64,000 nt of DNA from Minisyncoccota bacterium (GTDB lineage Bacteria; Patescibacteriota; Minisyncoccia; UBA6257; GWB1-50-10). Location of the stretch: the NCBI GenBank assembly GCA_041665265.1, contig JBAYJE010000001.1, forward strand, positions 35,081 through 99,080. The letters are read 5' to 3'. The position numbers were made by a program, and so were the translations under genes. A model generated the notes under the pieces. That model was not told where the DNA came from, searched no databases, and worked only from the letters and a program-made list of their open reading frames with translations. Shown here piece after piece: positions 3,868-49,894 of this stretch. The first letter of the stretch is position 1. Every line of letters begins with the position of its first letter.

Positions 3868-5151
3868 ATGAAGATAAAGAATTTTCACGATCTAGCCACT
3901 AATAGGATTCGAGAAGTAGCGCTCATGATTGCCGAAACGGGACTTGAGGCCATCGATACAGAGTTGGTCGTAGAAAAACGAGTAGTGCTTCAGGGAAATA
4001 CGCTCATTATTCAAGGAAGGTATATTTCGCTGGTGGCGATTGAACGAATATTTGTGGTGGGTGCGGGGAAGTGTTCACTCGATGCAGCAAAAGTACTTGA
4101 GAGAGTATTAGGTGAGCGCCTTACGGGAGGAATAGTAATTGGTGTTGGAGAAACCCAATTAACCAAGATAAGAGCGGTTAAAGGAACACATCCATTTCCG
4201 AGCCCAATAAACGTAAGTGCAACTGCAGAAATAATAAAATTTCTTTCTGGAATGACGGAACACGATCTCGTGCTTTTCGTCATCTCCGGAGGAGGCTCAA
4301 CACTTCTTTGTCAGCCTCCCCAGGGATTAACATATGAAGATGAGGCGCGCACGCTTAAACTTCTTTTTGAAAAAGGAGCGACGATTGAGGAGATAAATAC
4401 ATTGCGCAAACACCTTTCTTTTGCGCGCGGAGGATTTCTTGCAGAGTACGCATATCCCGCACAGATAGTCTCGCTCGCATTTTCTGATGTACCAGGAAAT
4501 AAAATTGAACTTGTGGCATCAGGCCCTACAGTAAAAGATATAACTACCGTGGCTGATGCACGTCGCATTATTGAAAAATTTAATATTGAGAAGGAAATTG
4601 GACTCACAATCCCACTCATCGAAACTCCAAAGGAGGAGAAGTATTTTGCGCATGTGTGGAATACGCTCTTGGTATCAAATGAGATTGCACTTGAGGCAAT
4701 GGCAGAAAAGGCGAGAGAGCTTGGATTTTCTCCTATTATTAAAACCACCACAATTTCTGGAGAGGCGCGCGATATTGGCACAATGATAGTAAAAGAATTA
4801 CATGCCGCACCATCGCGAAGCATTCTCCTTTATGGAGGAGAGCCTACGGTAACTGTAAAAAAGCCGGGGAAGGGAGGGCGTGGACTTGAGTTAGTACTAT
4901 GTGCGCTTCAGTCTATTGTGCCTGGTGAATTGGTTCTTTCTATCGCATCAGATGGGCGTGATAACTGCGATTTTGCGGGCGCGCTCTGTGATATAATTAC
5001 GAAGGAAAAAGCACTTACGTTTGGACTTGATGCAGTAAAGTGTCTCGAAGAAAATATGTCCTATTATTTTTTTGAACACGAATTCGATTACCTTATGACG
5101 GGAATTACCGGATCGAACGTATCAGATCTTCTTGTGGGTGTAAAATTATAA
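3868..5151 (+). CDS. Glycerate 2-kinase, MOFRL family
   Basis: VVGAGKCSLDAAKVLERVLG..GGIVIGVGE (DUF4147 motif) and LLYGGEPTVTVKKPGKGGRGLELVLCA..SIASDGRDN (MOFRL motif). Confidence 0.75.
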   Translation: MKIKNFHDLATNRIREVALMIAETGLEAIDTELVVEKRVVLQGNTLIIQGRYISLVAIERIFVVGAGKCSLDAAKVLERVLGERLTGGIVIGVGETQLTKIRAVKGTHPFPSPINVSATAEIIKFLSGMTEHDLVLFVISGGGSTLLCQPPQGLTYEDEARTLKLLFEKGATIEEINTLRKHLSFARGGFLAEYAYPAQIVSLAFSDVPGNKIELVASGPTVKDITTVADARRIIEKFNIEKEIGLTIPLIETPKEEKYFAHVWNTLLVSNEIALEAMAEKARELGFSPIIKTTTISGEARDIGTMIVKELHAAPSRSILLYGGEPTVTVKKPGKGGRGLELVLCALQSIVPGELVLSIASDGRDNCDFAGALCDIITKEKALTFGLDAVKCLEENMSYYFFEHEFDYLMTGITGSNVSDLLVGVKL

Positions 5152-5156
5152 TTATT

Positions 5157-9139: not shown

Positions 9140-9243
9140 TGTATCCCGTAAGAAAATTAATAAGTATGAATTTTTCTAGAAAACTAAGATATTGTCGTAT
9201 GCGATTGTTCCTTGCCGAGGAATACAGACAGGTAATTTTTTAA
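9139..9243 (+). promoter_or_regulatory. Leader element C: motif ATGTATCCCGTAAGA starting a 34-codon uORF that overlaps the upstream stop (TAATG) and ends 4 nt before the eno ATG. Contains the 12-bp palindrome TTTTCTAGAAAA.
   Basis: Read directly. Confidence 0.4.
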
Positions 9244-9247
9244 CGAG

Positions 9248-10444
9248 ATGTATATAAAAGACATTCTTCTTCGCCAGATTTTTGACTCGAGGGGTGAGCC
9301 CACTATTGAGATAGGTGTACGAGATGCGGAGGGGTTTACTCATTATGCAGAAATCCCTTCAGGGAAGAGTAGGGGCGCACGAGAGGCGTCTGTGCTTAAT
9401 TTTGAGGAGGCACAAAAAGCAGTGAATCATATTAAAGAAAAGGTGGCTGCACACGATTTTAAAGGAGTGGGTGAAGTTGATGCATTTCTTCTTTTGCAAG
9501 ATCCCACACCTACCAAAGAAAAACTCGGTGGCAATGTACTCTTAGGTATTTCTATTGCAGCAGCACGCGGGTTTGCACATGCAGAAAAGAAAGAATTGTG
9601 GGAAGTTCTTCGAGAAGAATATTTTGGAGAAATTGAAAGTGATAAAGCTCCGCTCATTTTTTCTAATTTTATCAATGGTGGCGCGCACGCAAATAACAAT
9701 CTTGATATTCAGGAATTTCTTGTGATTGCACGAACGGATGATTCTATCGCGGCTACCATCAAAAAACTTATTGAACTTTATCGTGCGACGGGAGATTTTT
9801 TAAAGAAACAGTATACGTTAAAAATTATTCCTATTGGAGATGAAGGAGGATATTCCCTCGATTTTCCTGATAATAGTGAGCCGCTTGCTATGCTCGAGGC
9901 GCTTATTGATGAAAATGATCTTGAGCAAGAATGTATGCTCGGGCTTGATGTGGCCGCATCTCATTTTGGAGACAAGGGTGCGTATGTGTTTGAGAAAAAG
10001 GATTACACACGCGCAGCATTAGTAGGGCTTTATGAATCATATTTTAAAAAGATAAAACTTCTTTATTCAATTGAAGACCCCTTTGGTGAGAATGATCCCG
10101 AGGGATTCGTAGCACTTCGAAAAGCGGCGCCTAATAAGATAATAGTGGGGGATGATCTCACTACCACAAACCAGGCAGAGATTGAGATGCATACCGCAGA
10201 TGGTGCAGTGAACGGAGTAATTATAAAACCAAATCAGATTGGTACGATTTCTGAAACATGCGCCGCTCTTAAGGTGGCACGTATGCATGGTGCAAAGACT
10301 ATTGTCTCACATCGCTCGGGGGAAACAGAAGATGTATTTATTATTCATCTTGCAAAAGCAGCGAATGCTGATGGAGTGAAAATTGGAGCGCCTGCAAAGG
10401 AGAGATTATTAAAATTTAACGAATTAATTCGCTTGTATTCATAA
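9248..10444 (+). CDS. eno: Enolase (phosphopyruvate hydratase)
   Basis: SRGEPTIEIG N-terminus and SHRSGETED signature. 398 aa. Confidence 0.95.
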   Translation: MYIKDILLRQIFDSRGEPTIEIGVRDAEGFTHYAEIPSGKSRGAREASVLNFEEAQKAVNHIKEKVAAHDFKGVGEVDAFLLLQDPTPTKEKLGGNVLLGISIAAARGFAHAEKKELWEVLREEYFGEIESDKAPLIFSNFINGGAHANNNLDIQEFLVIARTDDSIAATIKKLIELYRATGDFLKKQYTLKIIPIGDEGGYSLDFPDNSEPLAMLEALIDENDLEQECMLGLDVAASHFGDKGAYVFEKKDYTRAALVGLYESYFKKIKLLYSIEDPFGENDPEGFVALRKAAPNKIIVGDDLTTTNQAEIEMHTADGAVNGVIIKPNQIGTISETCAALKVARMHGAKTIVSHRSGETEDVFIIHLAKAANADGVKIGAPAKERLLKFNELIRLYS

Positions 10445-16109: not shown

Positions 16110-17555
16110 ATGAAACGCGTTCTTGTAAGTTGTTTTGTGCTGTTCTTGTGTGCAATGAGTACGCAGGCACAGACATTCTCGTTGTTTTCACGCTTTGATA
16201 CATCACGAGTTTCAAGTGCCACTGTGTCGTATTCGGATACCGCATCGCAAGGGGCAACTGCATTTCGGTTTTCTCTTTCGACGCCCTACACTTCGGGCGC
16301 GCGATATGCAAAGTTCGACAAAATATATCCGACAACGCTTCCTACCCCACGAGGGGGAATTCTTGTGGATCTTATGGTGCCATCCTGGTGCGATAGTGTG
16401 CGTGTAGCGATTTCATTTTGCCTTGATTCGGTTGAGGTATTAAATTCGCCACTTACCATTGTCGCAAAGGGAGCATATCGGGAAGTTTATTTTCAATTTC
16501 CTGATACGCAGCGAACATTTAATCGATTGCGTGTGGCACTCTCATATCTGCCGGGTCGCTCAGGCGCCTACGTTCTTTTTATGGACAAAACGCGCTTGGT
16601 TACACCGACTGATACGATTTTATTTGATGGCGCAGAAAGTGATGTAATTTCTCCTGATCCGCCAACAAGTCTTGTGCTTGTGGCACCGACTAGTACCTCA
16701 GTAGTGATAGTTTCGGGTATTCCTGGGAATACGGATATCTTTGGAGGTGTTGCAGAACTCTCTACAAGTGCAAGTTTTACGAATCCAATTGTAAAAGCAT
16801 TTGTATGTAGTCACGGCGCACGCGATTCAGTTGTATTTACAGGACTTTCAAGTACCACTACGTATTATGGAAGAGTTATGTACATTGATTCGACGGGAAA
16901 TCGTTCACTCTATTCGGCAACCGCATCAGTCCAAACAGGGACATTATTGAATCCTCCTGATATGCCTACCTCACTTGGAGTCCAAAAAGTAGAACCAAGT
17001 GCAGTTACTTTCAGATTCAATTCACCTAGTGTGATTCAGAATGTGGAAGCGGTTATGGTTGAGTGTTCTGATGATATTACGTTTCCTCGTGATCGTGTGA
17101 TTATTATGTATGTTCCCATACTCGCACCGTCTACGTTGTATCTTGGAACATTTGGAGGACTTACCGGAAGCAGGACATATTATCTCCGCGCACGCTCAAA
17201 AGGAAAAGACAGTTCTTATTCGGCATACACTCCTGCCATTCCTGCACGTACAGTAGTGACGGGAGTTCTAAGTCTTGAGGGAAGTATTCCCACAACATTC
17301 ATACTTCAACAGAATTATCCCAATCCTTTTAATCCTGCAACACGCATTCGGTTTTCGGTGCCTGCATATGGCCCCGTACTTCTGGAGGTGTTTGACCTAC
17401 AGGGGAGACGAGTAGGCATAATTGCCGAGGGTATTTTTACTCCCGGGAATTATGAGGTTTCATTTAATGCAGACCATCTTGCCTCGGGTACCTATCTTTA
17501 TAGGATGCGCGCAGGAGAGGTGTCATACACTGCAAAGATGATACTTATGAGATAG
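16110..17555 (+). CDS. Secreted Fn3-repeat protein with C-terminal T9SS (Por) sorting domain
   Basis: Signal peptide MKRVLVSCFVLFLCAMSTQAQ. The C-terminus QNYPNPFNPATRIRFSVP...LEVFDLQGRRVG...GTYLYRMRAGEVSYTAKMILMR matches the Por_Secre_tail/TIGR04183 consensus. Confidence 0.75.
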   Translation: MKRVLVSCFVLFLCAMSTQAQTFSLFSRFDTSRVSSATVSYSDTASQGATAFRFSLSTPYTSGARYAKFDKIYPTTLPTPRGGILVDLMVPSWCDSVRVAISFCLDSVEVLNSPLTIVAKGAYREVYFQFPDTQRTFNRLRVALSYLPGRSGAYVLFMDKTRLVTPTDTILFDGAESDVISPDPPTSLVLVAPTSTSVVIVSGIPGNTDIFGGVAELSTSASFTNPIVKAFVCSHGARDSVVFTGLSSTTTYYGRVMYIDSTGNRSLYSATASVQTGTLLNPPDMPTSLGVQKVEPSAVTFRFNSPSVIQNVEAVMVECSDDITFPRDRVIIMYVPILAPSTLYLGTFGGLTGSRTYYLRARSKGKDSSYSAYTPAIPARTVVTGVLSLEGSIPTTFILQQNYPNPFNPATRIRFSVPAYGPVLLEVFDLQGRRVGIIAEGIFTPGNYEVSFNADHLASGTYLYRMRAGEVSYTAKMILMR

Positions 17556-17563
17556 TCATCGAG

Positions 17564-17592
17564 CCTCCGCATAGTGCGGAGGTTTTTATTTT
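17564..17592 (+). terminator. Intrinsic terminator with GCATAGTGC core
   Basis: CCTCCGCA-tag-TGCGGAGG plus TTTTTATTTTTT. Confidence 0.7.
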
Positions 17593-17605
17593 TTAAAAAG
17601 AAAAC

Positions 17606-17634
17606 TTGACCAAATACTAAGGATGTTTTAATAT
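17606..17634 (+). promoter_or_regulatory. Promoter TTGACC-17-TAATAT, 9 nt upstream of the Fn3 gene ATG (leaderless-like)
   Basis: Read directly. The ATG at 17644 leaves essentially no 5' UTR. Confidence 0.5.
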
Positions 17635-17643
17635 TTGGCCGAC

Positions 17644-19962
17644 ATGAGGAGCACACTGCATACAGGTTTATTCCTCGTAATAGCAACCGCCTATCTTTTT
17701 GGTGGTGTATTTTTTGCACATGCTGCCACACCCATTTCAATCTCTCTTCAGCCTTCTAATAATTCACTCTTTGTATCGTGGACGGTCCCCGCAGATGCCA
17801 CTGAGCAGGAGGTGCGTTATGCAACAATCGCAATAGATGAAGCGAGTTTTTCAGGTGGTACGATTGTCTCAGGAGTTCCCACTCCTATACCTTCTGTGCC
17901 TCAATCGGTAACAATTAATAATTTAGCAGAAAATACTAATTATTTTGTCGGCTATCGTTATGGAGATACGGTAGGGGCGTATACGTATTCATTCGCGTCT
18001 CTCACGACACTTTCTGCTCCACCCAATCTTCCTCCCGCATCGGTTACGGGATTTTCTGGTTCAGGAACAGAGACCTCTCTTAATTTTTCATGGACCGCAC
18101 CAAGCGATACTGATCTTTCTCAATACGAAGTTCGTTATGGTACGACCCCGATAACAGAAAATTCATTTGTAAATGAAACACAGGCAGTAGGTGCACCACT
18201 TCCCATACCAACCACCTCTCAATCATTTTCAATTGGTGGTCTTTCTTCGGCAACTACGTATTATGTGGGTATTCGAGTGACCGACACAGTAGGAAATAAT
18301 TCTCCTATAGCCGTTACTTCAATTACTACTGCGACAAAGAGTGGGGGAGGAGGAAGTGGCAATGTGTCTGCACCTTCTCCTGTTTCGTCATTTTCCGCAT
18401 TGGGGAGAAGCACCTCCGCGATACTTTCGTGGCATACGCCCGATGAGCGAGGTCTTTCGGAATTCGATGTGCGTTATTCATTAACTCCAATCACTGAGGG
18501 TAATTTTTCTTCAGCAATAAAAGTAAATACCACACCTCTTCCTCTTGAAGGAAAAAACCAATCATTGGATGTTTTGGGACTTTCACCATTTACTACTTAT
18601 TATTTTGGAGTCAAAACAGTAAATACGGTGGGCATGGTCTCAACACTTGTAACTGCATCAACGACTACTGGCGCATGGGTTCCTCCTGTTACTAATCTCG
18701 TAGCAACTGCGAGTGCAACTACTCTTGATGTGTCGTGGCACACGCCTACAAGCACTATTCTTTCAGTGTTTGATGTGCGATTTGCTCCGTTTGTATTTAC
18801 TGCACCCACATTTGCCTCAGGCACACTTGCCACAGGCATGCCTCTTCCTCTTGAAAATAAAGATCAGGGATTTCGCATCTCAGGACTTTCTGCAGGAACG
18901 AATTATACAATTGGAGTTCGTATTGTAAGTACGACAGGAGAAGCATCAGACATTGTGTTTATCTCAGTAACCACACCGACCGTGGGTGGTAATTCAATTG
19001 GTGGTGGGGGAGGCGTGGGTTGGGGAGGAGGTGCCATGTATTACAATCCCGCATTGCCTTATATGGTTATTAATAATGATGCAACTTCAACTGACCGTGA
19101 ATTAGTAACTCTTTCTCTCTCTTCTCCTTTGGTGCGCGAGATGCTCATTTCAAATCGTAGTGATTTCGTAGATGCAAAATGGGAGCCCTTCGCATCGTCA
19201 TCACAGTGGGTTTTGATAGGGGGAAGCGGTATTCGTACAGTCTACGCAAAATTCAAAGATCAAAATAATGCGATAAGTAGCGTAGTCTCTGATAGTATTA
19301 TGCTCCAGCCTTTTCATGCAGTCCCGGTTCGTACACCTGCACGCACATCTTCTCCTCGACCTGTATCGGTTATTACTCCAGGAAAACCATTCGCAACTCT
19401 TATCTCTATTTATCCAACACAGATTACGGTTATAAAGGGTGACTTAGTGACTATCACGCTTGTCGCACGTCCAGAAACATCAAAAAAGTATGGCGCACAA
19501 ATAGAACTCTCGTATCCTTCAGAACTTCTTGAATTAAGATCGGTAGAATATGCGCGTGGATGGAAACCTGCGTATGATGAGGAGAATAATTATGATGATG
19601 TAGAAAACGGCATTATTCATCGGGTGATCGCATACCCTGCAGGATTTACTGAACCTTTGCGCGTTATGTCACTCACATTCTTTGCACGTGAGGATGGTGC
19701 GGGACTAGTAAAGACCACCAACGGTATTACACTTCTTTTGCGTAATAACAAAACCGCACTTCGTATGGAAACGAAATTGAGCGTTGTTCCACCATCAGGT
19801 ACTAAAAATGAGCACCTTTTTGCAAATATTCTTTCCGCTACTACAGGAAGTAATCTTGTCTCATTTGTAAGTGTGCTCTCATTTTTCAGCATTCTTTCAA
19901 TAATCTATTTTACAACGAGTAAGAAAAAGAGTTTGAAAGATATCATTTTAATAGGGAAGTAG
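17644..19962 (+). CDS. Cell-surface protein with five or six Fn3-like repeats, cohesin-like domain and C-terminal TM anchor
   Basis: Signal peptide (MRSTLHTGLFLVIATAYLFGGVFFAHA). Repeated SWTxP...EVRY...TxYYxGxR modules. C-terminal hydrophobic helix plus KKKS tail. ATG lies 9 nt after a TAATAT -10 (leaderless-like). The TTG start of the table ORF was rejected. Confidence 0.65.
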   Translation: MRSTLHTGLFLVIATAYLFGGVFFAHAATPISISLQPSNNSLFVSWTVPADATEQEVRYATIAIDEASFSGGTIVSGVPTPIPSVPQSVTINNLAENTNYFVGYRYGDTVGAYTYSFASLTTLSAPPNLPPASVTGFSGSGTETSLNFSWTAPSDTDLSQYEVRYGTTPITENSFVNETQAVGAPLPIPTTSQSFSIGGLSSATTYYVGIRVTDTVGNNSPIAVTSITTATKSGGGGSGNVSAPSPVSSFSALGRSTSAILSWHTPDERGLSEFDVRYSLTPITEGNFSSAIKVNTTPLPLEGKNQSLDVLGLSPFTTYYFGVKTVNTVGMVSTLVTASTTTGAWVPPVTNLVATASATTLDVSWHTPTSTILSVFDVRFAPFVFTAPTFASGTLATGMPLPLENKDQGFRISGLSAGTNYTIGVRIVSTTGEASDIVFISVTTPTVGGNSIGGGGGVGWGGGAMYYNPALPYMVINNDATSTDRELVTLSLSSPLVREMLISNRSDFVDAKWEPFASSSQWVLIGGSGIRTVYAKFKDQNNAISSVVSDSIMLQPFHAVPVRTPARTSSPRPVSVITPGKPFATLISIYPTQITVIKGDLVTITLVARPETSKKYGAQIELSYPSELLELRSVEYARGWKPAYDEENNYDDVENGIIHRVIAYPAGFTEPLRVMSLTFFAREDGAGLVKTTNGITLLLRNNKTALRMETKLSVVPPSGTKNEHLFANILSATTGSNLVSFVSVLSFFSILSIIYFTTSKKKSLKDIILIGK

Positions 19963-42805: not shown

Positions 42806-43963
42806 ATGAAGCGCGTTCAAAAAGCTATTGCAAATGTATTGCATCGATTGCGAGGAAGCACACTTCTTGTTGAACAGATAAATGGAGTGTATAAAATATC
42901 GCGAGCCTATGATGCCGAGACAAATCGTAGTGCGCATATTATCAAGCAAAAATTTGTCCGTAATTTGAATGAATTAAGACCATCGCTTTTTGGCCTTCGA
43001 ATGTTTGGAAGTATTATTCTTGCGCTTGATTCACATCATGCGACCACAATTGAAAGCGGTGTGAAACTCGTGAGAGCAAATCCTCAAGAACCCATTGATG
43101 AGGGTGAATTAGACGCCCTTCTTTTTCATGGGTTTTGGAATTTTTTAAATCGTTACCGTGCATTTGCTTCAAAAAAATTGGGAATAAATGAACTCGATCT
43201 TATTGTGGCAAATGTTGCAGTAAACGGGGTTCGTATTGGTACTCACACGGTATTTAATCCGCTCGATTTTTCTGGCCGTGAATTATTTTTGAAATTTCGA
43301 GGTACTCTAATTGCGCGTGATTTTCTTCCTTCTATTACCCATCTCAGTAAATTTGTGCGTGGCAATATCATCGTAGTGGAACGAGGCTCCATTCTTATGG
43401 AGGCGATAGGAGAGCCTGTGGTGTTTCTTGAAATAGAAGATGAGAAGACGTCTGTATTTGTAATAGGAAATGAAGAAAGTAGTTATGTGGGGGAATGTGC
43501 GTGGGGGGCGAAAAATATCACGCGTGCACTTGGAAAACTTTTTGGTGTGCATATGCACATTGTTCCAGCACTCTTGAACCGCTATACTAATAATCAGATT
43601 TCAGAAAAGATGCGACATATTATTGTGCGCACCGCACGCGAAGAGATGAGAAATCTCATAGAACATCTTGAACCAATAGTACCGGCGGGGCACATGAAAA
43701 AGTCTGCAATTCGCTATGTACTTTCATCGTCGCATCCAATTCCTGAATCATTATTTGCATGCGGAGAGCTTCGGTCGGCATCATTTAAGATTCCAAAAAA
43801 TGTATCATTAGGAGTGAAGAGAGAATTGAATGAATCAGAAGAAGAGGGAACACACATCGATCAGTCACTCGCATTATTTGCTTTTCCTTATCTCCACCCT
43901 CAATACATGCCGGTGAATCAGTTACTTCAGCGGAGAGTAAAATGGCTTATGCCACATGCCTAA
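42806..43963 (+). CDS. Hypothetical protein, possibly degenerate actin-fold (PilM/FtsA-like) without phosphate-1 motif
   Basis: The second-half pattern VFVIGNEESSYVGECAWGAKNITRALGKLFGV...SAIRYVLSSS resembles actin-like ATPase subdomains. The N-terminal Gly-rich loop is absent. Confidence 0.4.
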   Translation: MKRVQKAIANVLHRLRGSTLLVEQINGVYKISRAYDAETNRSAHIIKQKFVRNLNELRPSLFGLRMFGSIILALDSHHATTIESGVKLVRANPQEPIDEGELDALLFHGFWNFLNRYRAFASKKLGINELDLIVANVAVNGVRIGTHTVFNPLDFSGRELFLKFRGTLIARDFLPSITHLSKFVRGNIIVVERGSILMEAIGEPVVFLEIEDEKTSVFVIGNEESSYVGECAWGAKNITRALGKLFGVHMHIVPALLNRYTNNQISEKMRHIIVRTAREEMRNLIEHLEPIVPAGHMKKSAIRYVLSSSHPIPESLFACGELRSASFKIPKNVSLGVKRELNESEEEGTHIDQSLALFAFPYLHPQYMPVNQLLQRRVKWLMPHA

Positions 43964-43971
43964 TATAACGT

Positions 43972-44075
43972 ATGAATCCCGTTAGAGTTTTACCAGCGGA
44001 GTATAAAGGAGATGGTAATATGAATACGATGAGTATCAAAAATAAAAAAGTAATATAAAAAAATTCTAACGGGAT
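43972..44075 (+). promoter_or_regulatory. Leader element B: motif ATGAATCCCGTTAGA, 11-bp inverted repeat (43976..43986 / 44065..44075) bracketing an SD-equipped 12-codon mini-ORF. Right arm contains the ATG of gene 44074.
   Basis: Read directly. AAGGAGA SD 7 nt before the ATG at 44020. Confidence 0.45.
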
Positions 44076-45687
44076 GAAAAAAGAACGAAAAATCTTTCTT
44101 GATAGATCTGAAGGACTTGATGCGGCCGTGGATAAAATTATCCATATGCCTGCTGACACTATTATTCTAAATATTCCTAAGGGCTCTGTACTTGGACTTT
44201 CCCCAAATAATTTTCGTGTGTTGAAACGAGAGAGTGAGACTGCGGGAAAAATATTCACTGTGGAATCGGTGGATGATGATATTCTTGATCTTGCAAAACT
44301 CGCAAAAATTGAAGCAATAAATCCAATATTAAGTATGCGAGAGCGGGCGGTTTCGGATATTGTAAGAAATGTTCCCTCATCGAGAAAAGAAATTCCCAAA
44401 AAAGAAGCCGCCGTTGCTGTTAAGAAGGAGGTGTTAGGAAAAGAAGAGATTCCCATCAAGAGCGAGATTTATAAAGAAATACCAGTACATAAACCGAAAG
44501 AGGAGATACACGAAGAAGAAATATCCTACGTAAATTCCTCACGAGGAAAAAGAGGATGGCTCTTGTCGCTTTCTATTTTTGCACTCGTCGTCATTGCGGG
44601 AGGATGGTACGCATATCGCGAGGCACCTCGTGTCGCGGTGGAAATAACTCTTAAGAAGGCTGAGATTCCTGTAAATCTTACTGTGCGGGTGAGCAAGGAT
44701 TATCACGAAGTAGGTGTAGAGGATAATGCAATTCTCCTTCCAGGGGAGCTTCTTGAAGCAAAGAGTAATCTCTCAATGGATTTTCCTGCGCAAGGAACGG
44801 AAGTAGTGACTGCACGTGCAAAAGGAAAACTTACTGTGTATAACGCATTTAGTTCAAGTCCACAGGGGTTGGTGGCATCTACGCGCTTCGAGTCTTCTGA
44901 GGGGAAGATATTTCGTCTTGATAAGCCAGTAATTATTCCTGGGGCAAAAGTTGTTGCGGGGAAAATGGCCCCCTCATCCATTGAAGTGAGTGTGACTGCG
45001 GACAATGCGGGACCAGAATATAATAATCCGAAGGAAGGGAGATGGACCATTCCAGGATTTAAAAATACTGCTAAATTTAGTGGGTTTTATGCAGAGGCAT
45101 CTAGTGTTATAGACGGTGGCTCATCGGGGGAGCGTGCGGTAGTATCTGCAGATGATCTTGCGAGTGCAGAGGAGAAGGTAGGTGATGCACTTCGCGCAGC
45201 TCTTGAGAGTCAGATGCTTCTTTTGAAAAATGAAGTATTTAAAACAGTTGATGGAAATACAGAATTTACTATTTTGAAAAAAGAGCCACAGCCAAGTGCT
45301 ACCGATAAAAAAATATTTGGAATGTTTATGGAGGGAAGATTGAAACAGCTTGTATTTGAAGAGAAGGCACTTAATGAGGCGCTCTCAAAAGTTGCAGGAA
45401 AGGGTCGTACTGGAGAGCGAGTGGCTGAGATGAAAGTGTCGTATGGAACGCCGATATTTGATTTTGAAAAGGGGACAATGGTGTTGAATGCAACGGGGAC
45501 GATTGTGTTTGTGGCGGATGTTGATGCAGAAGGGTTTAAAACGAGTATTCTTGGTGCGGACGAAACTGCAGTAAGAACGGCGGTGTGGGCGTTACCTGGA
45601 ATTGAAACTGCAAAGGCATCTTTTAGTCCATTTTGGGTTCATCGTGCACCTACAAATCCAGCGAAGGTAAAAGTGACTATTCAGTAG
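44074..45687 (+). CDS. Bitopic membrane protein: about 170-aa cytoplasmic domain, E/K-rich linker, one TM, about 350-aa extracytoplasmic domain
   Basis: Single hydrophobic helix WLLSLSIFALVVIAGGWYAY. No SD. Start codon embedded in an 11-bp inverted-repeat arm. Confidence 0.5.
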   Translation: MKKERKIFLDRSEGLDAAVDKIIHMPADTIILNIPKGSVLGLSPNNFRVLKRESETAGKIFTVESVDDDILDLAKLAKIEAINPILSMRERAVSDIVRNVPSSRKEIPKKEAAVAVKKEVLGKEEIPIKSEIYKEIPVHKPKEEIHEEEISYVNSSRGKRGWLLSLSIFALVVIAGGWYAYREAPRVAVEITLKKAEIPVNLTVRVSKDYHEVGVEDNAILLPGELLEAKSNLSMDFPAQGTEVVTARAKGKLTVYNAFSSSPQGLVASTRFESSEGKIFRLDKPVIIPGAKVVAGKMAPSSIEVSVTADNAGPEYNNPKEGRWTIPGFKNTAKFSGFYAEASSVIDGGSSGERAVVSADDLASAEEKVGDALRAALESQMLLLKNEVFKTVDGNTEFTILKKEPQPSATDKKIFGMFMEGRLKQLVFEEKALNEALSKVAGKGRTGERVAEMKVSYGTPIFDFEKGTMVLNATGTIVFVADVDAEGFKTSILGADETAVRTAVWALPGIETAKASFSPFWVHRAPTNPAKVKVTIQ

Positions 45688-45791: not shown

Positions 45792-46010
45792 ATGAGCAAA
45801 AAAGATAGTTTTATAAAACAGGACGGCATAGTGCAAGAAGCATTGCCAGGCTTACTCTTCCGCGTGTCGCTGGAAGGAGAGCGAGAGGTCCTTGCCCATT
45901 TGGGAGGAAAAATGAAGTTGAATAGGATTCGTGTGATCCCAGGAGATAGAGTAACAGTCGAGATGACTACGTACGATGAGCGCCGAGGGCGCATTGTGCG
46001 GAGGTTGTAA
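45792..46010 (+). CDS. infA: Translation initiation factor IF-1
   Basis: S1-like OB fold GIVQEALPGLLFRVSLEGE..VLAHLGGKMKLNRIRVIPGDRV. Own TTGACT-17-TATAAT promoter. Confidence 0.9.
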   Translation: MSKKDSFIKQDGIVQEALPGLLFRVSLEGEREVLAHLGGKMKLNRIRVIPGDRVTVEMTTYDERRGRIVRRL

Positions 46011-46062
46011 AAAAGTAAGTATTCGAGTAATATTACGTTGCTCGTAAAAGGGCATTTTTATT

Positions 46063-46176
46063 ATGAAGGTAAGAGCATCTGTAAAAAAAATCTGTTTGAA
46101 ATGCAAGACTATCCGTCGCAAGGGAAGGGTCTATGTCATTTGTGAAAATAAAAAGCATAAACAACGACAAGGATAA
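46063..46176 (+). CDS. rpmJ: 50S ribosomal protein L36
   Basis: 37-aa [40 protein letters not shown] (C-x2-C...C-x4-H zinc ribbon). Below the ORF-track length cut-off. Confidence 0.85.
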
Positions 46177-46182
46177 TTATTT

Positions 46183-49565: not shown

Positions 49566-49708
49566 GAAACCTTCATTCTTATTCTTCAGAACCAGAATAC
49601 ATTTGCTCCCGCGGCAAATGTTTCCTCCCCCTCGTCCTTTTGTCTCCCTACGGGAGAACCAAGCCAAAAGGACTCCGGGATGTTCTTCAGAATAAGAATG
49701 AAGGTTTC
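49566..49708. repeat. 143-bp structured palindromic element (27-bp terminal inverted repeats with nested hairpins) between rpsI and the next gene
   Basis: GAAACCTTCATTCTTATTCTTCAGAAC...GTTCTTCAGAATAAGAATGAAGGTTTC (25/27 complementary). Internal hairpins CATTTGC/GCAAATG, TCCTTTTG/CAAAAGGA, CTCCC/GGGAG. Confidence 0.5.
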
Positions 49709-49894
49709 AATTAATATTTGAACAACCCTTGACATACTCGCTCAAAGAAGATTTGGGGATTGGCAGTTGGAGCATATTCATTGACCAATTTGCTTTGGAA
49801 GTTGTACTATGGGGTTGTTCTTTAATATATGGTCGCAAGTAATGAGAGCTGGAAATTCCAGACGGTATGAACGCGAACCAAAGGAGGAATTGCT

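Follow-up and report, generated by a model that had tools for sequence, protein, structure and literature searches.

A start-codon insertion in a Paceibacterota operon, very likely a MITE-like element and possibly a ribosome relay

INTRODUCTION

CPR/Patescibacteria are considered to have streamlined genomes with little mobile DNA. In the 64,000-nucleotide stretch of one such genome, a Candidatus Paceibacterota MAG, that was analyzed here (hereafter, the window), the last gene of a conserved ATPase block begins within one arm of an inverted repeat, and the two arms bracket a short open reading frame with a strong Shine-Dalgarno (SD) motif. This arrangement, which we refer to as locus B, raises the question of whether the repeat and its reading frames form a dedicated regulatory leader, as proposed by a sequence-only reading that saw leader-peptide-coupled translational control and suggested a test by lysine or asparagine limitation, or whether they have a different origin.

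RESULTS

Anatomy of locus B

The gene block at locus B consists, in order, of a sigma70-r4/HARE-HTH protein, a DUF8128 membrane protein, a 183-aa protein, a HerA/TraG-like ATPase, a 385-aa protein and a 537-aa protein. The block, with the 385-aa and 537-aa genes last, is conserved and is followed by infA and the S13-S11-S4-rpoA operon. The features at the junction of its last two genes are as follows.

42806-43963, + strand: upstream 385-aa gene of the ATPase block, with its TAA stop at 43961-43963
43972-43974, + strand: start codon of the downstream gene before the insertion, now a decoy ATG at the head of an upstream ORF (uORF); the empty site in L003 reads TAACCATGAAAAGC
43972-44058, + strand: uORF of 28 codons (MNPVRVLPAEYKGDGNMNTMSIKNKKVI) plus TAA stop, from the decoy ATG through the element
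43973-43976, + strand: left copy, TGAA, of the target-site duplication
43976-43986 and 44065-44075: inverted-repeat arms ATCCCGTTAGA and TCTAACGGGAT, perfectly complementary
43977-43991, + strand: left terminal inverted repeat, TCCCGTTAGAGTTTT (15 nt)
44006-44012, + strand: internal SD-like AAGGAGA, 7 nt before the ATG at 44020
44020-44058, + strand: mini-ORF MNTMSIKNKKVI, 12 codons plus stop (44056-44058), in the same frame as the uORF
44060-44074, + strand: right terminal inverted repeat, AAAATTCTAACGGGA, whose final A serves as the first base of the rebuilt ATG
44074-45687, + strand: downstream gene for a 537-aa bitopic membrane protein, its start made of the element tip A and the TG of the duplication
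44075-44078, + strand: right copy, TGAA, of the target-site duplication

What the sequence-only reading described at this junction is borne out. The 11-bp inverted repeat is perfect, and with one G.T position included, the pairing reaches 16 nt (43976-43991 / 44060-44075). The right arm, said to contain the ATG of gene 44074, holds the first two bases of it, and because the N-termini of homologues align there, ATG 44074-44076 is the true start of the 537-aa gene. We also recover the AAGGAGA motif with its 7-nt spacer, the 12-codon mini-ORF that ends 15 nt before the gene, and the 28-codon uORF that opens with MNPVR at 43972 in the frame of the mini-ORF. The absence of an SD motif before gene 44074 was correctly noted as well, but it is normal in this genome, where only 17 of the 63 window genes (27%) have even a loose SD-like motif. 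TATAAT-like boxes lie 6-10 nt before the ATG of genes 42806 (tggtataatggaagtaaATG), 11590, 12780, 20133 and others, and this short spacing, together with the rarity of SD motifs, suggests frequent leaderless or SD-independent initiation in the organism.

Three copies in the window and empty sites in relatives

The exact 9-mer CCCGTTAGA/TCTAACGGG at the ends of locus B occurs four times in the window, compared to an expectation of 0.29 (maximum of 2 in 100 Markov resamplings). They are arranged as two convergent pairs, one at locus B and the other at 2868-2944, in locus A, where the same motif had indeed been reported. A degenerate third pair at 9145-9247 defines locus C.

2863-2949, + strand: locus A, with left target-site duplication TGAA at 2863-2866, core at 2867-2945 and right duplication mutated to CGAA at 2946-2949
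9140-9252, + strand: locus C, a degenerate copy at the enolase start, with target-site duplication TGTA at 9140-9143 and 9249-9252

With the element in parentheses, the layout of locus B is A-TGAA-(T CCCGTTAGA ... TCTAACGGG A)-TGAA, that of locus A is A-TGAA-(C CCCGTTAGA ... TCTAACGGG G)-CGAA, and that of locus C is A-TGTA-(T CCCGTAAGA ... TTTAACGAG A)-TGTA. All three are inserted in a start codon, between the A and the TGNA that follows it. The ancestral ATG survives with the left copy of the duplication, and the right copy, joined to the last base of the element (A or G), yields a new ATG or GTG. At locus A, the closest relative, which we call the sister genome, has TGAA at the last position (GTGAAC), and the rebuilt GTG is intact there, whereas it is GCG in the window genome; the 182-aa gene of the window now starts at an in-frame ATG within the element (2927), which adds six codons relative to the ancestral start. 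A perfect local hairpin at locus A (2872-2884 / 2889-2901), formed by the left arm with an internal third arm, competes with long-range pairing to 2933-2945. At locus C, the stop of a 2-hydroxyacid dehydrogenase gene and the enolase start overlapped as TAATG before the insertion, and the uORF from the decoy ATG, which begins MYPVR where the ancestral ATG is read into the repeat, now extends for 34 codons to a TAA within the right arm that precedes the enolase ATG by 4 nt. The three copies are alike only at their ends, with interiors unrelated to each other, and each has the same orientation in the window and sister genomes.

All three elements occupy the same sites in the sister genome (L001/L002, L124; 79-83% amino acid identity). 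In relatives at 50-71% identity, the elements are missing and the neighboring genes abut. For locus B, the genes of L003 (50% identity) are 2 nt apart, with the junction TAACCATGAAAAGC. For locus C, the genes are separated by 5-7 nt in L125 and L126 (about 70% enolase identity), and for locus A, the gene in these same two genomes starts directly at ATGGAA. Judged from these alignments, the locus B element is an insertion that occurred in the common ancestor of the window Paceibacterota genome and its sister. The proposal of a dedicated regulatory leader is not supported by this comparison, in which the relatives at 50-71% identity have abutting genes without the motif. The MNPVR peptide is the ancestral ATG and the duplicated TGAA read into the repeat (ATG AAT CCC GTT AGA), and the uORF is a by-product of the insertion, not a dedicated leader. 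An allele from which the element had been precisely excised would read ...AACGTATGAAAAAAGAACG...

Elsewhere in the window, two large secreted/surface-protein genes lie at 16110-19962, between a 128-aa gene and uvrA, one with a Por_Secre_tail domain and the other with fibronectin-III repeats. Because this gene pair has no counterpart in the sister genome (L124), it represents a lineage-specific indel.

A wider family of elements

When the pattern CCCGTTAGA-N55-85-TCTAACGGG was scanned across 185,579 species genomes, at least 120 loci were found. Chance alone could give a few hundred matches to so short a pattern in 596 Gb, and the match count is therefore by itself no proof of a family. The flanks of the arms were left unconstrained in the search, and it is their agreement that carries the proof. 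Just outside the arms stands a Y at the left end and an R at the right end, a pair that is complementary in 129 of the 141 elements listed. The next 4 nt are identical on both sides in 80/141 of the listed elements, compared to at most one in shifted controls, while inverted rather than direct flanks were seen in only 4/141. The duplications read TNNA (TGAA, TTTA, TTCA, TAAA, TCCA and others). Inside the arm, three further positions vary and are nonetheless Watson-Crick complementary in 88%, 94% and 76% of elements. Complementarity drops to about 33% beyond them, and therefore the family repeat is exactly 13 bp, consisting of Y, CCCGTTAGA and three covarying positions, with the core YCCCGTTAGA.

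The matches listed come overwhelmingly from metagenome-assembled genomes (MAGs) of many Patescibacteria classes, Omnitrophota, Planctomycetota and Desulfobacterota, and several of the contigs among them have multiple copies. Elements from different genomes have unrelated interiors, and near-identical copies occur within some genomes (L023, L106, L019/L013). The preference for start codons is seen here as well: 53 of the 141 elements listed (38%) lie directly next to an RTG that begins an ORF of 80 codons or more, compared to 5% of control RTNNAY sites. The abutting genes in other genomes are housekeeping genes such as dnaA, atpA, rplA, secE, tyrS, murC, murB, ackA and lexA. About eight copies lie in frame inside long ORFs. 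One of these forms a 41-codon insert in the N-terminal domain of Fpg (L016, 5741-5863), and another lies within a pyruvate:ferredoxin-oxidoreductase-like ORF (L072, 6060-6146). In L023 (2943-3104 and 6122-6199), 84-nt units are found in prepilin leaders, just 5' of the G/FTLIE cleavage motif.

Many elements have a degenerate third arm near the gene-distal end, the position of which correlates with the side on which the gene lies. We also observe mini-hairpins of about 27-30 nt that consist of an arm, a short loop and an arm (L016, 5795-5821; L078, 1262-1291; L116, about 3953-3980), one of which is nested in a larger element with its own 4-bp duplication, CGAG. These are too short to fit easily with a transposase that loops double-stranded DNA, and they could be deletion derivatives or a pointer to a hairpin intermediate.

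We found no description of the family in the literature on mobile elements or MITEs of CPR bacteria, or by sequence.

Identity of the element and search for a mobilizing enzyme

Locus B shows the features of a MITE, namely terminal inverted repeats, a direct target-site duplication, small size (98 bp, 43977-44074, with a longest ORF of 28 codons) without a transposase gene of its own, and empty orthologous sites. The three dispersed copies in the window are alike at their ends only, and near-identical copies occur in other genomes. The unrelated interiors of copies A, B and C are unusual for a recently amplified MITE and count against this assignment. On balance, a mobile-element origin of locus B is very likely.

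The mobilizing enzyme was sought in several ways. Among arm pairs 250-5000 bp apart and among solo arms, we found no autonomous partner with the same ends, and neither in the 64-kb window nor in about 1 Mb of element neighborhoods did we detect a transposase with these ends. Clustering of 745 neighboring ORFs, with Pfam searches on the recurrent ones, returned housekeeping genes in every case and no recurring transposase family. In L019, inverted repeats of about 330 nt (2046-2369 / 4832-5155; 89-95% complementary) surround a 2.5-kb segment. Each of these repeats holds a 92-nt copy of the element, and the repeat is also present in L013 and L077, which are other contigs of the same MAG, and in L038. 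The segment was considered as an autonomous element and rejected, as it encodes a 686-aa surface protein with a Big_5 domain and not a transposase. Elements of the IS200/IS605 type and REP elements were set aside given the clear target duplications. An integron attC site was likewise rejected, with the arms running GTTAGA...TCTAAC, the reverse of the R''/R' arrangement of attC.

Conservation of the elements since insertion

Between the window and sister genomes, elements B, C and A are 94%, 93% and 83% identical, respectively, whereas in six flanking genes, four-fold degenerate sites are 45-58% and coding nucleotides 77-86% identical. In a sliding-window comparison, no other 120-nt stretch within +/-600 nt is conserved as well as B or C. 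The contrast between the elements (83-94%) and the four-fold degenerate sites (45-58%) therefore points to purifying selection on the elements in this lineage, and from this one sister pair, we conclude that whole elements have been held by such selection since their insertion.

The target of this selection is not a peptide. In the uORF frame, 3/4 of the substitutions at B and 4/6 at C are nonsynonymous, and at locus A, two compensating 1-nt indels shift the frame of conserved nucleotides between the two genomes. With mostly nonsynonymous changes, and with conserved nucleotides at locus A read in different frames, a selected uORF peptide was rejected. Despite its indels, the uORF at locus A remains 22 codons long and ends in an ATGA overlap with the working start. 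At locus B in the sister genome, the mini-ORF reads MNKMSIKNKKVINKKF (16 aa; a T to K change, a 1-nt indel and a displaced stop), and the uORF has 32 codons and stops at a TAA that lies within the right repeat, at a distance of 4 nt from the ATG. The AAGGAGA motif is conserved there. The sequence-only reading had suggested looking for the mini-ORF in related genomes, and when this was done, it was found only in the sister genome, with an altered peptide, and was absent from L003.

Nor is a structured interior RNA the selected feature. The interiors alone have folding z scores of about 0, on which ground this candidate was rejected, and the z of -4.6 for the whole locus B element is owed to the arms. 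Folding of the interiors alone gives no explanation of what is conserved in them.

Other intergenic DNA of the window is a mosaic of segments with about 46-66% identity to the sister genome, together with conserved promoters and terminators. Three spacers were noted in this comparison. The infA-S13 spacer (46010-46182) is 96.5% identical to the sister genome and holds an unlisted small ORF, ATGAAGGTAAGAGCATCTGTAAAAAAAATCTG..., that resembles ribosomal protein L36 (rpmJ). A 27-nt inverted repeat (49566-49592 / 49682-49708; 93% complementary) surrounds 89 nt in the spacer that follows the S9 gene, and this segment (49566-49708), which could not be aligned with the sister genome, may be another kind of palindromic insertion, confined to the window genome. 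Finally, about 125 nt (about 49770-49894) 5' of a 214-aa gene (49895) are nearly identical in the sister genome, with the preceding 200 nt being unalignable. This stretch has a promoter-like TTGACC...TACTAT, ends in AAAGGAGG and has no Rfam match at the gathering threshold, and could represent a conserved 5' leader or a cis-regulatory RNA.

A proposed translational relay

The junctions at which the elements landed were tight before insertion, with 2-7 nt gaps or the TAATG overlap. In the operon mRNA, the two repeats of locus B would pair and partly bury the rebuilt AUG. The predicted stem has 15-16 bp with the rebuilt AUG at its foot, and the A and U of this codon are paired. The start region of gene 44074 ranks as the sixth least accessible of 62 genes, such that the predicted burial of the AUG is moderate and not extreme. 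Ribosomes could then resume at the decoy ATG after finishing the upstream gene, or enter at the internal AAGGAGA-ATG, and by translating across the element, they would melt the stem over the rebuilt AUG. They would stop 15 nt before this AUG (4 nt in the sister genome) and reinitiate. Through such a relay, the last gene of the block would stay coupled to its upstream neighbors, with no sensing of amino acids.

Several observations bear on this proposal. At all three loci, in both genomes, no stop interrupts the uORF between the decoy ATG and a point 0-16 nt from the working start, and at locus A, its TGA overlaps the ATG. Across the family, SD-like motifs occur in the element interiors of 12/54 elements in the sense direction compared to 1/54 in the antisense direction (p = 0.002), to which purine skew could contribute. 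An open uORF through the element is found in 17/40 sense versus 11/40 antisense cases, a difference that is not significant (p = 0.24). Ribosome bypassing of the T4 gene 60 type was also considered and rejected: the match between take-off and landing sites includes the initiation codon, which leaves no nascent peptide, and no stop follows the take-off site.

We regard the relay function as plausible, though somewhat short of probable on the sequence features at hand. The earlier proposal of leader-coupled translational control is retained in part, in that the stem spans the start, the ORF ends before the gene and coupling is reasonable, but the motif on which it was built is the terminal inverted repeat of an insert. 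Considered as a whole, locus B is probably a non-autonomous MITE-like transposable element, with terminal inverted repeats and a 4-bp target-site duplication, that may have become a ribosome relay.

Alternative explanations

The alternative that survives best is that the element is a decaying, functionless MITE, in which the ORFs, SD motif and stem are accidental and the downstream gene is translated independently. This would account for the terminal inverted repeats, the target-site duplication and the empty orthologous sites, and it is consistent with an open uORF that lacks significant enrichment in the family, with interiors that are not unusually structured and with a genome in which most genes start without an SD motif. 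A decaying element would not be expected to be among the most conserved local segments, as these are (83-94% identity versus 45-58% at four-fold sites), nor to keep its uORF length through compensating indels, as locus A does. A perfect 7-nt SD motif at the right spacing is moreover improbable by chance in 100 nt, and it is conserved. We therefore consider loss of function unlikely.

A non-mobile, structured cis-regulatory RNA of the riboswitch kind, or a small RNA gene with a conserved closing stem, would explain the strength of that stem (z = -4.6), the covariation of its inner positions and the high conservation relative to the sister genome. The target-site duplications and empty orthologous sites instead show arrival by insertion, and the interiors are unrelated between copies and not unusually structured. 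Searches of the window against Rfam 15 gave no matches at the gathering threshold and only chance-level matches at E values up to 10, with none for the element even at E = 10, and no tRNA or tmRNA genes were found in the window. This explanation is improbable.

Still less probable is a leader-peptide attenuator, in which ribosome stalling at the lysine and asparagine codons of the mini-ORF senses amino-acid supply and sets downstream expression. The mini-ORF is indeed rich in these two residues, and a short SD-equipped ORF within a stem that contains the AUG of the gene is what such a device would look like, but A-rich codons match the AT-rich composition, and the region is an insertion missing from the next relatives. 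The sister peptide has changed, with three of the four uORF-frame substitutions being nonsynonymous. Only one long-range stem is found at locus B, with no terminator-like site on the gene strand and no alternative pairing, and the 537-aa membrane gene has no link to lysine or asparagine metabolism. Finally, the same ends flank unrelated interiors before unrelated genes (enolase in the window; dnaA, atpA and rplA elsewhere), which argues against Lys/Asn sensing.

The least probable alternative, a DNA switch in which a recombinase flips the segment between the repeats and turns the gene on or off, draws on the identical inverted repeats around about 70-100 bp directly 5' of genes at several loci, but it is opposed by the direct 4-bp duplications that flank them, a hallmark of transposition and not of inversion, by the absence of a recombinase gene in the 64-kb window and of a promoter-like site inside the element on the gene strand, by the shared orientation of all three loci in both genomes, and by the failure to find a flipped locus B in metagenome contigs, a weak control in that the forward form gave mostly chance 17-mer matches, with one sister-type copy (L144) and two other family members.

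DISCUSSION

Several known systems resemble the MITE-like element and its proposed relay in part. The Correia elements of Neisseria (CREE/NEMIS) share with the family a size of about 100-150 bp, terminal inverted repeats and short target duplications. Like the family, they lie between genes, are co-transcribed with them and have copies conserved at orthologous sites. Their repeats pair in mRNA and can alter the expression of neighboring genes, a likeness that we draw for the family as well. They differ in having 26-bp repeats, a TA duplication and a range of one genus, compared to 13-bp repeats (Y-CCCGTTAGA-NNN), TNNA and several phyla for the family, which also differs in its highly variable interiors and in sitting exactly on start codons and rebuilding them. 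Rickettsia palindromic elements (RPEs) are likewise short, palindromic and mobile, and are tolerated inside essential genes. The in-frame family members of L016, L072 and L023 behave in a similar way. RPEs are typically in-frame coding insertions, whereas the family is mostly found at gene boundaries, and locus B is not part of a protein.

In the ermC and trp leader systems, as in the relay proposed for locus B, translation of an upstream ORF opens a stem over the start, and the ORF stops a few nucleotides from the downstream start. Unlike these systems, locus B has no conserved peptide, regulatory codons, terminator/antiterminator alternative or metabolite link, and its ORF arose as a by-product of target-site duplication.

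With regard to the origin of the ends, the 13-bp terminal repeat of piggyBac, CCCTAGAAAGATA, resembles that of the family, CCCGTTAGAAAG. PiggyBac duplicates TTAA and has CCC tips, and IS1380 is its prokaryotic outgroup (PMC10813416). Both piggyBac/IS1380 and the family have a 4-bp duplication with T first and A last and C-rich (CCC) repeat tips, but the family has TNNA instead of TTAA and an extra Y/R base before the CCC. A transposase, of whatever family, was not found beside these ends, and kinship with piggyBac/IS1380 is a lead only.

A more speculative reading, which we put forward tentatively and consider rather unlikely in its full form, is that the ends are built such that insertion in an ATG or GTG context is harmless. 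The family would then be one of apparently undescribed, cross-phylum "start-codon-compatible" palindromes that were later selected as relays or regulators of essential genes. Under this reading, the terminal purine and the duplicated TG would rebuild the start codon, and the decoy frame through the left repeat would always be open (CCC GTT AGA). The three frames of the right repeat would each be tolerable: the first would give a TAA stop 4 nt before the rebuilt start, the second an in-frame fusion, and the third an ATGA overlap when the duplication begins with TGA. The covarying 13-bp stem and the 27-nt mini-hairpins with duplications of their own would hint at mobilization via a hairpin intermediate.

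Start-codon rebuilding, spread across multiple phyla and strong constraint after insertion are unusual for a MITE-like family. For annotation, the consequence is that gene callers will misplace starts, as at locus A, where the working start adds six codons, and may call spurious MNPVR peptides. What emerges is a short palindromic family located at the start codons of housekeeping genes in several uncultivated phyla, where it rebuilds those starts. If the relay proposed for locus B is true, transposition would have repeatedly made new translational control points inside operons.
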